In this document: positions 2,743-58,747 of the stretch, piece by piece
Position numbering within the stretch: the stretch's first letter is position 1
How the letters are laid out: each line of letters starts with the position of its first letter
NCBI GenBank assembly: GCA_964016885.1
Contig: OZ024743.1
Coordinates: 60,636,001-60,700,000, forward strand
Length of the DNA: 64,000 bases
Origin: Eledone cirrhosa
Taxonomy: Eukaryota
Direction: 5' to 3'
Position numbers and translations under genes: made by a program
The notes under the pieces: model-generated
What the model saw: the letters and a program-made list of their open reading frames with translations, nothing else
Databases searched by the model: none
What the model was told of the DNA's origin: nothing

Positions 2743-2948
2743 AACGAAGCAAGTGTGGTAAAGAACTAGGTGGACCATAACGCACCATAGTACTCGATAC
2801 GTAAGGTGGTAGAGTGGGTAACAGGAAAAGAGCCAGGACCCCGACGGCTGAGCTCCGGCCGTTTCGACAGCTAGATCTGAACAGTTTTCAGAACTAGATC
2901 TCGAAACGGCCGGAGCTCAGCCGTCGGGGCCTTGACTCTTTTTTTTCC
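2743..2948 (-). mobile_element. Fold-back mini-element family B in (TA)n
   Basis: About 80-nt unique tail plus inverted arms 2824-2948; homologs at 10608, 36616, 44971, 56251, 58569. Confidence 0.8.
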
Positions 2949-3261
2949 TATATATATATAGACTAGAAAACAAAAAATCTCTCTTGTGAGAGAATATACT
3001 CCGAAATCATTAGCCGTGTCCGTCGAACCTGCAGGTCCAGAATCAGACAGATCCACACAATGATCACGCCGGCGAGACAATTTTAACACACAATAAAGTC
3101 AGTTCAGATGCATCACTAATTTCTCGTCTTCTATTCTATCATACTCTGCTCTGTAAGAACATAGAGTGCTCAACCGGCATACCGCCTATGGAAGCATCTT
3201 AGCTACCATTAGACACATACACACACACACACACACACACACACATATATATATATATATA

Positions 3262-4552
3262 TAATGACATATGTAGGGAATAGAAATGGTTGTGTAGTTG
3301 CTATTTAAGGTAAATTAAAATGCAGTGGGAATATGAAGAAAGCAAGAACGAGGGGGGAGTTTTTCTCATCAGTTGTCTACTGAGGGTCTCGGATATTTCT
3401 ACGCTTTAAAGACAAGATACCACTTCGCCCCAGGGCGTCAATAACTGGATAAGTTATGTGGAAAACGAAGGAAGGAGGGAAAGAAAGCAAAGGGGAAGAA
3501 AAGAGAAAACAGTAACAAAACAGCGAAAAAAAACAACCCCCTTACTTCCTCTCCCTTTCTCCCTCTCACTTTCACCTCCTCGTCTGACCGTTTAGCAGTT
3601 CTCTTCTCACTTACAACTGCGGCGATCGGACGTGTGTCTTGTTCCTCTCGACTACTCAGCCTTGAACTTAAGTTCTCTTATCGAGTGGTCTAGGATTTCC
3701 TACCTATAGTTGCTCGCACATTGCTCGGTGTGTTGTTTTTTCTCTCGCTGTCTTGTTACTGTTTTCTCTCTCTCTCTATATATATATATATATATTTTCT
3801 TCGTTTTCCCAATAACTTATCCAGTTATTGACGCCCTGGGCGGTAGATATCTTGTCTTTAAAGCGTAGAAATATCCGAGACCCCCCGTAGACAACTGATG
3901 AGGAAGACTCCCCTCCCCCACCCCCGGTATTGCTTTATTCGTATTCCCACTGTATTTTAAGTTACCTTAAATAGCAACTACACAGCCATTTCTATTCTCC
4001 ATATATTTCATCATGTTTTTCGCTGTGACCATTTTTCTCTTCCCTTCTACCTACCTATTTCGCCTCTTTCTACTCTCACATCCTTCTTTCTTCCATTCCC
4101 TTTCTCCCTATCTACTCTTACCCCTATTTCTTCCTCTCCCTTTCTCCATCTCACTTTCACCTCCTCGTCTGACCGTTCAGCAGTTCTCTTCTCACTTACA
4201 ACTGCGGCGATCGGACGTGTGTCTTGTTCCTCTCGACTACTCAGTCTTGAACTTAAGTTCTATTATCGAGTGGTCTAGGATTTCCTACCTATAGTTGCTC
4301 GCACATTACTCGGTGTGTTGTTTTTTCTCTCGCTGTTTTGTTACTGTTTTCTCTTTCCTTCCCCTTTGCTTTCCTTCCTTCATTTTCCCCAAAACTTATC
4401 CAGTTATTGACGCCCTGGGGTGAAGTAGTATCTTGTCTTTAAAGCATAGAAATATCCGAGACCCCCAGTAGACAACTGATGAGGAAAACTCCCCCTAACC
4501 CCCACCCCCACCACCGTGCTTGCTTTCTTCGTATTCCCACTGCATTTTAAGT
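3262..4552. mobile_element. Partial-tandem and inverted repeat element cluster (PLE pseudo-LTR-like)
   Basis: Segment A at 3798-4015 and 4380-4552 (+) and 3262-3470 (-); segment B at 3538-3775 and 4120-4355; pieces bounded by (TA)n. Confidence 0.7.
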
Positions 4553-5074
4553 AATATATATATATATAAATATGTAGTAGTAGTAGTAGTAGTAGTAGTA
4601 GTAGTAGTAGTAGTAGTAGTAGTAGTAGTAGTAGTAGTATTGGTGACTTGTGTATAATAAAACATAAAAACAGCCAAACACTAGATGGATGATCACTCAA
4701 TATACAGAAGCAGGGTATAAATTGTATTTCACAAAGAATGTGGCAGTCACTTAACAGCACCGGTTGCAATAAGACACTTTGGAGGTTAATTACATAAGCA
4801 TGCATGTAAATACGTACGTATGTATGTAGGTAGGCAAGTACGTATGTACCCATGCATGCCCGGGTTTATATATATATATATATATATATATATATATATA
4901 GAGAGAGAGAGAGAGAGAGAGAGAGAGAGAGAGAGAGAGAGAGAGAGAGAGAGAGATCACTAACTCTTTTGTTTTCATTGTTCAACATGACGCATACACA
5001 CAAATATATATACATATATATATGTGAGTGTATATATATATATATATGTAATATATATATATATATATTTAATA

Positions 5075-5190
5075 TAGGTTTTCTACAGGACTAGAATTCT
5101 TTCATTCGGGAGAAATCATCAGAAATCATCAGGAAGCGGGTTCCTGATGATTTCTCCCGAATGAAACAGCTCTTGTACTGTAGAAGCCTA
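5075..5190 (+). mobile_element. Fold-back mini-element family A with hammerhead motif (5141-5185)
   Basis: Inverted arms around gcggg; ttc CTGATGA tttctcccgaat GAA acag ctcttgta ctgt A|gaa. Confidence 0.7.
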
Positions 5191-5199
5191 GTAGATATT

Positions 5200-5706
5200 T
5201 ATATGTGCATATATATATGTGTATATATATATATATATATATATATGTGTGTGTGTGTGTATATATATGTATGTATATATATGTATGTATATATATGTAT
5301 GTATATATATATATATATATATATATATACATATACATTTATATATATATACACACATATCTATATATATATGTGTGTGTGTGTATATATATACATGTAT
5401 ATACATGTATATATATACATATATATATATATATATACATATATATATATATATATATACATATATATATATATATATACATATATATATATATATATAT
5501 ATATATATATATATATATATATATATATATATATATATATGTGTGTGTATATATATACATGTAAATACATGTATATATATATATATATATATATATATAT
5601 ATATATATATATATATATATATATATATATGTATATATATATATATATATATATATATATATATACATATATATATATATATATATATATATACATATAT
5701 ATATAT
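5200..5706. repeat. Compound (TA)n/(TG)n microsatellite, representative of dozens in the window
   Basis: Direct reading; source of the YI-repeat ORFs. Confidence 0.95.
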
Positions 5707-5707
5707 G

Positions 5708-5871
5708 TCCCAAGCTTCTGATACCATCAACATTATAAACACAGAGCTGGCATTTCTAAAGAACTGACTAACTGCCTGATGAGGTCATAGCCATTCAATG
5801 GCTATCATCGAAATATATATACCAGTAAATAAAGGATTATAAGTTCATGCAATTGACTTATGTTTCGTCAC
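5708..5871 (+). mobile_element. About 163-bp hammerhead mini-element family D, copy 1
   Basis: Same ends (tcccaag...gtcac) as 41211-41373; actgc CTGATGA..atagccat/atggctat..GAAA tatatata|ccagt; (TA)n on both sides. Confidence 0.8.
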
Positions 5872-56450: not shown

Positions 56451-57171
56451 ATATATATATATATATATATATATATATATATATATATATATATATATAT
56501 ATATATATATATATATATATTTACGTAGAGCACGGAGCGTATGTGCATAAACACACATGTACCGTGTCGTATCTTGACAGTATTGTATAAGCTCAATGTA
56601 CGAGAACAGAGCCGTATGGGCCACGTAATTCAATTACCTACTAGTATACCTTGTTTATGTATACTATGGTGAGGATTAAAATTACTTTGGGCTTTCTGGA
56701 GGTACCTTAACAACCTCTTAGTACTTATATAACTATAAGTTACGGAGATCTTATTCACTTGTTATATATAGGGACCAGCGCTTAACTTCCGCTGGATTTT
56801 TATGTACTTAAACATTTTTTTTTTTCTTATTTATTTTTTTTTTTTTTTATTTATTTTTTTCCTTTTAAAATTTTTTAATCTTTTTTATTTATTTTTATCT
56901 CTTTATATTATTTCCTTTTTACTTTTTTATTATGTTTTAAGCATTGTTTATGCTTTTTGGTTTTGTGTGCCATCATTTGCATCAGCATCTTGTTAAAAAA
57001 ATTTGCCTGTACCCTTGCATTTAGCTGTAGTGCTTAATAACAACCCTAACATGTACTCTCTTCTTATTCGCCATCTCCGATCTCCCTATTTTTATCCTCT
57101 ATTGTATTCCTATTGTTTATGTGACTAAGTTTGGTAGAGCTTATACTCAGCACTGTGTTTTTGTTAATTAA

Positions 57172-57216
57172 GCTCTGGTGATTCCTGGCCAACGGTATGG
57201 ATGAAACATTGTCAGC
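57172..57216 (+). ncRNA. Hammerhead motif with A6>G change at the 3' end of a 740-bp insert (56521-57260)
   Basis: gct CTGGTGA ttcc..ggat GAA ac att gt C|agc. Confidence 0.5.
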
Positions 57217-57356
57217 AAATAAAAACTGTTTGAGTATGTAAGCGTTCTTTGATTTCTTTTATATATATATATATATATATATATATATATATATATATAT
57301 AGTAAAATAAAATAAAACAAAGACGATTGCTTACTCCTTCATTACGTTTATTGGTT

Positions 57357-57441
57357 GGTGACGCGCGTTTAGCCACTGATCAGCTCAAGGTTCTATCTGT
57401 ATCGATCTAGCCCGACTCTGTAATCCGCGGCTCGTCAGACC
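57357..57441 (-). ncRNA. Family G hammerhead motif (G12>T)
   Basis: rc: ggt CTGACGA gcc...ggc TAA ac gcgc gt C|acc. Confidence 0.6.
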
Positions 57442-57611
57442 CCTTACAATGGTAATGGAAAAATGATTATATATATATATATATATATATATATATATAT
57501 ATATGTGTATAAATATAATTACTCTTGCTATATGTATGGTGTTGGTATATATAGCTAGTGTTGCAATATATTTACAGTTGCCAAATGTCTCTCTCTCTCT
57601 ATATATATATA

Positions 57612-58302
57612 CAAGGTGCATTCCAGAAGCTTTGAGACTTTTTGAGGAGAGGCAGTTATTTTGTGGTAAACTGGGCCAAAAATGTCATGGAAAATTTATG
57701 AAATGCTTCAGACTGCTTATGAATTAATATGTATGAGCCGAGCATGGTAGGCAGGAGATGAGAGACAATGCGAGGTGTGAGAGAGTGAGTTAGAACACCA
57801 ACGTTGATTGAGAAAATTCACAATATTCGGGATGAAGACTGGTGTGTGTCTTTAAAGATAATCAGCATATACTTTGGAGTTGGTGTGGTAAATGTGCATA
57901 GAATTATTCATGAAGATCTGAACATGCGCAAAATGTTTGCAAAGTTTGTTCTCAGGGTGCTTAGTGACAAAGAGAATGAAGGACAGGGATTGGCAAAAAA
58001 CTGTCCACTCACCCCCCAACAATCAAGATCTTGCTCCCAGTGACATTTGGTTGTTCCCCAAGCTGAAGGAGAACCTCAAGAGCAGTTGATGTGAATAAAG
58101 TAAGAAAGTGAAGGAAGCTATGAGAAAGGAGACCGTTAATTTGGAGGACTTTCATGGGCCTTCAGTAAGTGGTTGGGGCAAATCAACAAGTGCTTTGAAG
58201 TCAAAGTATCCTACTTTGAAAGAGATTAGAGTTTTGTACTTTGCTAAAATGAATAAAAAATGGCTCATTTGAAGAAGTCTAAACATTTCTTGAATGCCCC
58301 TC
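57612..58302 (+). mobile_element. Internally deleted mariner remnant
   Basis: HRIIHEDLNMRKMFAKFVLRVL and DLAPSDIWLFPKLKENL; degenerate TIRs. Confidence 0.72.
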
Positions 58303-58568
58303 CATCCCAATTCTACTTTTGGAAAGCATAAGAACTGTGAAACCGGTAAAGGAAATAAATAAATATTCTTAAAAGGACTCCAGTTGCATTTTCGATTTCT
58401 TTTCCTAATACTTTCACTCGTGTAGGACATCTGGTTTTTTTATTCATAAAAACCTTATTTTCTTATATATACATATATATATACACACACACACACACAT
58501 TATATATATATATATATATATATATATATATATATATATATATATATATATATATATATATATATATA

Positions 58569-58747
58569 GGAAAATGTTTAAACCCGACGGCAGAGCTCAA
58601 GCCGTTTCGGCGGCTATTTCTGGACGTCGAAACAGCTTGAGCTCTGCCGTCGGGATTAAACATTTTCCTATTACCCACTATTACCCTAAGTATTGAGTAC
58701 TCTGGTGCGTTATTGTCCCTCTGGTTCCTTACTACACTTCCTTCGGT
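58569..58747 (+). mobile_element. Fold-back mini-element family B
   Basis: Homologous to 56251-56450. Confidence 0.8.

Follow-up and report, generated by a model that had tools for sequence, protein, structure and literature searches.

Short ends of Penelope-like elements in (TA)n tracts of Eledone cirrhosa: probable twin priming from two internal sites

How does an insertion of about 200 base pairs come to consist of two opposed copies of the same sequence, only one of which carries a tail? The question is raised by a 64,000-nucleotide stretch of the Eledone cirrhosa genome (assembly GCA_964016885.1, contig OZ024743.1, positions 60,636,001 to 60,700,000 of the forward strand; hereafter the window), which is AT-rich animal DNA, rich in (TA)n, from a source assembly of 3.0 Gb. 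Judged by their sequences, three of the families found in it (A, B and C) represent the ends of Penelope-like elements (PLEs) that bear marks of the Hydra clade. An earlier note on this DNA had described the layout as arm, arm and tail, and had proposed second-strand or twin priming by the (TA)n target on an internal TA motif. We consider it very probable that the short PLE ends in (TA)n arise by twin priming, one end starting from the arm boundary (S1) and the other from the tail end (S2).

In what follows S1 is coordinate 0, and negative numbers denote positions upstream of it. An exact 28-mer from the family B arm had 15,117 matches in the genome, whereas the reversed control had none, thus the repetition of the arm is not due to chance. 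The first 100 listed matches gave 85 loci, which were used as the position sample; an initial search with the whole palindrome was biased toward a shared arm start and was excluded from the counts. The combination of one S1 and one S2 end was found at 62 of the 85 loci (52 assigned by script and 10 by reading the other 33). The rest comprised one S2+S2 and one S1+S1 insertion, six with one non-canonical start, three complex loci, nine single arms and three loci reaching beyond the 285-nt reference. Mixed ends were present in 62 of the 64 two-armed B insertions with canonical starts, against at most 50% expected from independent choice (p=1.1e-16), and the same 62 of 64 carried a single tail. 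The median length of a B copy (tail-less arm, join, arm and tail) was 197 nt. Among 11 long B copies, seven ended at S1 on their own, without a tail, three at S2, with a tail, and one at neither. The S1 ends of long copies show that S1 serves as a start site independently.

Selection by the tail alone gave a similar picture. The tail-only search for B had 2,630 first-look candidates, and in sets of 30, each including the window copy, 26 B copies had two arms (25 with the start at S1, one with it in a (GA)n flank), as had 16 C copies (15 starting at S1) and 19 A copies (16 starting in a cluster from +1 to +19). The fixed internal arm start, which the earlier note had set against random starts, stood for B and C, whereas in A it was a cluster. 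Sixty copies of A, C, E, F, G and K met by chance, on which the end counts for E, G and F rest, comprised 45 with S1+S2 ends, two with S1+S1, one with S2+S2 and 12 unclassified; 34 of the 45 were assigned by script alone, the remainder by reading the +18 ends of A and G as S1. All six long inverted A pairs (2.6-8.3 kb), four of which had been fetched as inverted pairs, had one tailed and one tail-less end.

The six B copies of the window can be aligned with one another and begin their arm at the same site, (TA)n followed by GGAAAA or its subfamily equivalent, exactly as had been noticed before. The observation that the arm boundary often falls on a TA-like motif was extended to all eight families examined (B, A, C, K, E, G, F and H), in G through a one-base variant of the motif. 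In family B, TAT follows each of S1 and S2 in the element. One B copy contains 9 TAT and 31 TA motifs between -130 and +300, with starts essentially confined to those at +1 and +81. A TA motif allows priming but does not pick the site. Tail lengths were 80 nt in B, 79 in A, 67 in C, 88 in K, ~61 in E, 80-98 in G, ~40 in F and ~67 in H, in line with the 35-95 nt noted earlier.

At the centre of the insertions, previously described as a fold-back point, two cDNAs of separate priming were most likely joined. Of 52 B copies, 24 had the longer reach in the tail-less arm and 15 in the tailed arm, and in 13 the two were equal. The tailed piece passed S1 in 45 copies and stopped within the tail in seven, which resulted in an inversion without a palindrome. 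Two non-palindromic inversions, missed in the earlier note, lie in the window itself (A at 44830-44909 and K at 2565-2732). At locus L081 a 148-nt tailed inverted piece lies opposite a 3.1-kb tail-less piece, and at L244 a B arm (S1 to -57) is joined to a K arm with its tail, a single case among 267 imperfectly deduplicated head-to-head joins. The 52 joins in B showed microhomology of at least 2 nt in 17 cases, were near blunt in 18 and contained inserts, often short copies of nearby sequence, in 17. A 4.4-kb palindrome (98.6%) at L309:1121-5534, the arms of which code for a PLE nuclease, is a long form of the same head-to-head join.

Do the two cDNAs come from the same RNA? The arm spacers of a copy were within one mismatch of each other in 33 of 39 copies versus 36% between copies (0 of 20,000 permutations), and this sharing of subfamily spacers suggests one RNA source. 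A variant of twin priming in which two independent RNAs are the rule, the pairing of S1 with S2 coming from an asymmetric protein complex, is possible but unlikely. Two RNAs are needed by the B-K join and by locus L122, whose two arms have spacers of two different B subfamilies, and with two RNAs the same stretch need not be copied twice. On the other hand, 33 matching spacer pairs would demand a strong cis preference, and several tailed pieces stop no further than about 15 nt from S1, as though they had run into the other enzyme on a shared RNA, which is no more than suggestive.

A quite improbable origin is folding back or self-priming, in which the tail-primed cDNA would fold, copy itself and, through a jump to the opposite end of the target, stop at an internal TA motif; in another version an antisense template would prime itself, as proposed for rotifer PLE palindromes. 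Self-priming accounts for palindromes, for the single tail per insertion and for matching arms, some centres are perfect hairpins (C at 13188), and it has been proposed in print (PMC3846280; papers given by PMC number are cited here from parts of their text). The difficulty is that the tailed strand must contain the whole other arm, which it often does not: it was the shorter one in the 24 copies counted above, and the seven stops within the tail, the window copies at 2565 and 44830, L081 and the B-K join would be impossible unless a later deletion had occurred in each. In addition, long copies end at S1 without an inverted copy of their own length. Second-strand priming, the other possibility named in the earlier note, should not alone be able to give an inverted arm, since copying of the cDNA would yield the direct orientation. 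Twin priming, the remaining proposal of that note, is supported by the one-S1-one-S2 rule, by the inversions without overlap and by the join of two families.

The turning points do differ between copies, as had been claimed, but only mildly: 84 of 104 B arms ended at -47 to -66, and five went beyond. Six of 20 ORF-bearing B copies (ORF, open reading frame) begin at -41 to -56. The stop about 57 nt upstream of S1 is possibly the 5' end of the RNA, and such a run-off is plausible because the promoter and the RNA start of Penelope lie within its pseudo-long terminal repeat (pLTR; PMC2377424). Ribozyme cleavage was rejected as the usual turning point, the predicted cut being at -17 and the arms ending near -57; L033 (which turns exactly at the predicted cut) and L054 are exceptions. 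At L033:1590-1985 the inverted arm turns, and a second unit starts, exactly at the predicted cut, and this B copy may derive from cleaved RNA. An initiator-like motif at -57 of B was not used either, because A and C have none at their stops.

The proposed course of events is as follows. The PLE protein, a predicted dimer, would cleave the (TA)n target on both strands, whereupon the two target 3' ends would pair by 1-3 nt with the element RNA at S2 and S1 and be extended. Both cDNAs would usually remain short, most stopping about 57 nt upstream of S1, where the RNA likely begins. Their 3' ends would then be joined head-to-head by repair, likely by microhomology-mediated end joining, and filled in to give (TA)n, tail-less arm, join, arm, tail and (TA)n. 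Judged by the shared subfamily variants, both cDNAs would usually come from one RNA; sometimes they would come from two. The short products would be abortive insertions, far outnumbering the long ones.

After masking of microsatellites, every palindrome that the earlier note had named was recovered in the window. Its copies and related features are the following.

2565-2732, no strand: family K, inverted tail (2565-2655) head-to-head with a tail-less arm (2656-2732), almost no overlap; inversion without palindrome.
2744-2948, minus strand: family B, divergent subfamily; the tail occupies 2744-2823, the arms meet close to 2885, and the end without a tail is at S1.
3264-4552, plus strand: PLE-like layout, family not traced; inverted 3264-3537 and direct 3542-3962 and 4127-4552 (two partial-tandem units) between (TA)n.
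5069-5190, no strand: family A, older copy; two arms, no tail.
6789-6981, plus strand: family A, arm-arm-tail; CTGATGA...GAAA hammerhead-like core within the arm.
10610-10766, minus strand: family B; tailed piece to -21 only, tail-less arm longer, left flank (TG)n.
12078-12278, plus strand: family F, one arm only, with its S1 end in (TA)n.
13188-13387, plus strand: family C, arm-arm-tail; arms 100% complementary.
14202-14760, plus strand: family E (14203); arms of ~250 nt with hammerhead motif, tail of ~60 nt.
15609-16001, plus strand: family G (15607); arms of ~145 nt with a hammerhead motif in each, tail of 80-98 nt.
29931-30594, minus strand: family H (29930); tail on the left, arms 30000-30166 and 30421-30590 with an unpaired spacer between them.
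36617-36778, minus strand: family B, arm-arm-tail; both arms to about -39.
37761-38190, plus strand: family F; arms of 195 nt, 98% complementary, tail of ~40 nt.
39140-41000, plus strand: 5'-truncated body of a related PLE; C-terminal half of the reverse transcriptase (RT) and GIY-YIG-type nuclease, broken frame.
44830-44909, no strand: family A; tail-less arm, followed across the join by no more of the tail than its final 39 nt; inversion without palindrome.
44971-45034, no strand: family B, single arm of 64 nt from S1; no second arm, no tail, 8-bp palindromic end.
52819-53027, minus strand: family C, arm-arm-tail.
56251-56449, plus strand: family B, arm-arm-tail; short templated duplication at the join.
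58569-58746, plus strand: family B, arm-arm-tail.

The arm-arm-tail layout ascribed to all six B copies was found in five, the copy at 44971 having one arm only. For the other families it was found in A at 6789, C at 13188 and 52819, F at 37761 and the copies at 14202, 15609 and 29931, but the A copy at 5069 is tail-less. Family K occurs with arm and tail colinear, in this order, at L017, L147 and L264 and also in reads.

Other features of the window lie beside these copies. The single B arm at 44971 directly abuts a fragment (45035-45185) resembling a long interspersed nuclear element (LINE), presumably with an RTE-type motif. An inverted pair, 97% identical and with (TA)n runs (10243-10355 and 10896-11008), flanks the B copy at 10610 and is possibly an older head-to-head insertion split by later insertions. 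Family D is represented by 163-nt single-orientation copies between (TA)n (5709-5872 and 41212-41374) with a canonical hammerhead motif, and is probably another PLE end. Further CTGAnGA...GAAA cores with helix II at 1160, 14030, 26371 and 44686 (nine such cores in the window versus 0.9 in shuffles) are likely extra PLE ends. The A tail (6907-6981) and the B tail (56372-56449) have an 11-nt motif in common and are otherwise unlike; the motif is a candidate protein-binding or start-site signal. A LINE fragment with RT and restriction-like nuclease regions, classified by eye, lies in (TACA)n at 18340-20200 with a short 3' duplicate at 20223-20386.

The assignment of A, B and C to PLEs starts from B. 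One tail-selected B copy continues beyond the tail into the start of an ORF. A query with this ORF start had 857 candidates, and the 20 loci fetched include units of ~3.1 kb in the order arm, tail, ORF and arm. The ORF is broken in these copies; it contains RT motifs, including YRDD, and a C-terminal nuclease with I.Y..YIG. In the atlas the RT piece had similarities of 0.95-0.97 to RT clusters and the nuclease piece 0.94 to a GIY-YIG cluster. A Pfam GIY-YIG match (E=1.3e-6) was rejected as evidence for B, because it belongs to another element, located within L080, with 24% identity to the B nuclease. C termini were found by tblastn immediately behind an RT end and a nuclease of this type, and the A terminus was tied to such an ORF in five of 12 long loci, with a Pfam GIY-YIG match below the cut-off (E=9e-4). 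The family A element is longer than B and has a microsatellite-rich 3' part. Both A and B show the pLTR pattern, that is, the same terminus on both sides of the ORF, partial tandems and an inverted 5' copy. RWR and DKT are present in the ORFs of both (in B, L091 has NKT), and a CxCx5C linker was found together with CxxC and CxH on either side of the E and N of the nuclease, CCHH being absent by eye. A PDB sequence search with the RT piece had no match, and a single-sequence fold of the nuclease piece was unusable (predicted local distance difference test, pLDDT, 36.6). Other PLE clades, with other RT and GIY-YIG types, are nested near these elements (L305, L311, L080 and L302:1088-2516), and Helitron-like helicase fragments, judged by eye, lie near family A copies at L244 and L247.

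A strict hammerhead descriptor had five matches in the window versus a mean of 0.3 in 30 shuffles; it matched E, G and D and did not match A, B, C and K. The B arm is predicted to fold as a hammerhead-like three-way junction, with a TTGAnAA core in seven of ten 3' ends, and this predicted fold carries the U3-A8 core variant. No hammerhead was among the 150 of 192 Rfam matches listed, which held only sub-threshold microRNA-like matches.

Non-autonomous DNA transposons, that is, miniature inverted-repeat transposable elements (MITEs) or foldback elements with terminal inverted repeats and a TA target duplication, are a very remote alternative: the copies are indeed short, abundant, palindromic and flanked by TA (on both flanks in 44 of 52 B copies), but their sequences are 3' ends of elements with RT and nuclease, which refutes this origin for A, B and C, and their ends are asymmetric, the arms are variably truncated at the centre and many copies are non-palindromic.

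Illumina restriction-site-associated DNA (RAD) reads of three other samples, taken from another study, were aligned to a B copy with one arm. At S1, loose ends of (TA)n were seen in 2691, 2602 and 2375 reads of the three samples, and the depth dropped upstream of -60 from ~11,700-13,500 to 210-330, about 35- to 65-fold. Among the strand-switch joins were arm-to-tail ones: -57/+12 was present in 54, 111 and 102 reads, with one start each, and -60/+20, -57/+24, -56/+40 and -53/+29 in 0-12 reads per run. These S1 ends and joins argue against an assembly artefact, though they give no confirmation of single loci in the window. That hairpin reads beside TA runs produced the palindromes during assembly or library preparation is scarcely credible: TA-rich palindromes are hard to assemble and no read is shown spanning a window copy with unique flanks, yet the arms of one copy differ by 0-20%, the boundaries are family-specific and the ends and joins recur in the three samples.

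Several points weigh against the interpretation favoured here, that of two separately primed cDNAs of PLE origin. All of the mechanism is deduced from end products, and the B loci sampled lie within the first 27 Mb of a single contig, each of them requiring an intact 28-mer. Several of the seven breaks within the tail fall at shared microhomology of 2-6 nt, and given the instability of palindromes, arms could have been shortened by asymmetric deletions after insertion, which would imitate some of the cases without overlap. The concordance of arms could partly reflect later conversion between them, and is predicted by folding back as well. The B-K join could be a deletion between neighbouring insertions. 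As for the RNA 5' end, four of the other ORF-bearing B copies begin further upstream, seven begin inside the tail and three are without this part, and the stop coincides with a modelled hairpin in ribozyme helix II that could stall the RT. The reads are short and restriction-site-biased, several of their joints have few distinct starts, and near-symmetric joins are not listed as joints. A Pfam search with the B RT and nuclease pieces had no match, including for B's own nuclease. PLE identity covers A, B and C; E, F, G, H and K were not traced to an ORF.

A wider reading can be drawn, which we consider somewhat less likely than not: twin priming would be the normal route of PLE integration and not a side reaction. 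The dimer would load one RNA at two programmed starts, and each target strand would make a short cDNA, similar to a strong-stop product, that runs off the 5' end of the RNA. Whether or not either cDNA jumped to the 3' pLTR would then determine which product forms, be it a 200-bp stub, a full-length copy, a partial tandem or an inverted pLTR. If this is true, one rule explains tail, inversion and tandem in all endonuclease-containing (EN+) PLEs, no second strand is made by the enzyme, and different families are fused now and then. As repeats the stubs are very abundant, and they would be taken wrongly for MITEs or for microRNA hairpins. They also offer thousands of minimal products with countable ends, and the near-strict rule of one site per end is testable in an existing in vitro system.

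How does this compare with known systems? In L1 twin priming, as Ostertag and Kazazian are said to have described it in 2001, both target ends prime, the second site by microhomology, and a 5' inversion with a ragged join is formed. Two separately primed, opposite pieces with microhomology to each target end occur here as well; a target-site duplication is unreadable in (TA)n. In L1 the second priming site is reportedly variable and the pieces mostly do not overlap, whereas here the two sites, 40-98 nt apart, are both constant, and as a rule one stretch is present in both pieces. The mechanism works like twin priming, not in the L1 form.

Among PLEs, the closest biochemical parallel is Poseidon PAc of Anolis, for which cutting and extension of both strands, two internal starts bounding a tail and a predicted dimer were described in vitro (PMC11167929). 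An AT-rich target, two internal starts and a hammerhead or hammerhead-like motif that is not needed as the 5' end are common to the two systems. The parts of that paper available describe no strand-specific start, no rule of one site per end and no head-to-head joining, and stress non-homologous priming, whereas 1-3 nt of TA pairing are available at both B sites. An inverted pLTR, a tail at one end and a palindrome at the inverted junction are shared with Penelope of D. virilis and with the Penelopes of Adineta (PMC2377424, PMC3846280), and the parallel that the earlier note drew with Penelope's tail-less inverted pseudo-LTR is borne out by A, B and C being PLE termini themselves. The Penelope and Adineta junction was explained by self-priming (PMC3846280), whereas two primed cDNAs are favoured here.

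The Hydra clade, as far as described in the consulted text of PMC8557442, agrees in the single ORF, RW(K/R), DKT, the CxCx5C linker, CxxC/CxH, (TA)n and a length of ~3 kb, and has a hammerhead where a hammerhead-like motif is seen here. It differs in having RWK, against RWR here, and tails stated as 30-40 nt, against 40-98 nt. The ~200-bp two-ended stubs are the main product here, and motifs, target and length are the basis of this putative assignment. PLEs typically have an inverted 5'-truncated copy and a tail on one side only (PMC8557442, PMC3846280, PMC2377424), so the architecture is known; the formation of the inverted pLTR and the one-sided tail is described as open (PMC8557442). The one-S1-one-S2 rule, the inversions without overlap and the two-family join are new here: no paper stating any of them was found, a retrozyme preprint, seen in part, included, with subscription journals, older PLE reviews and supplements, which may anticipate part of it, outside the scope of the search. 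Finally, PLE remnants of Schistosoma contain paired minimal hammerheads on opposite strands, 100-700 bp apart, and have the same U3-A8 core variant as family B (PMC4209133); the sections seen give no end mapping or mechanism. By analogy, these paired hammerheads are probably the same kind of short head-to-head PLE stub.

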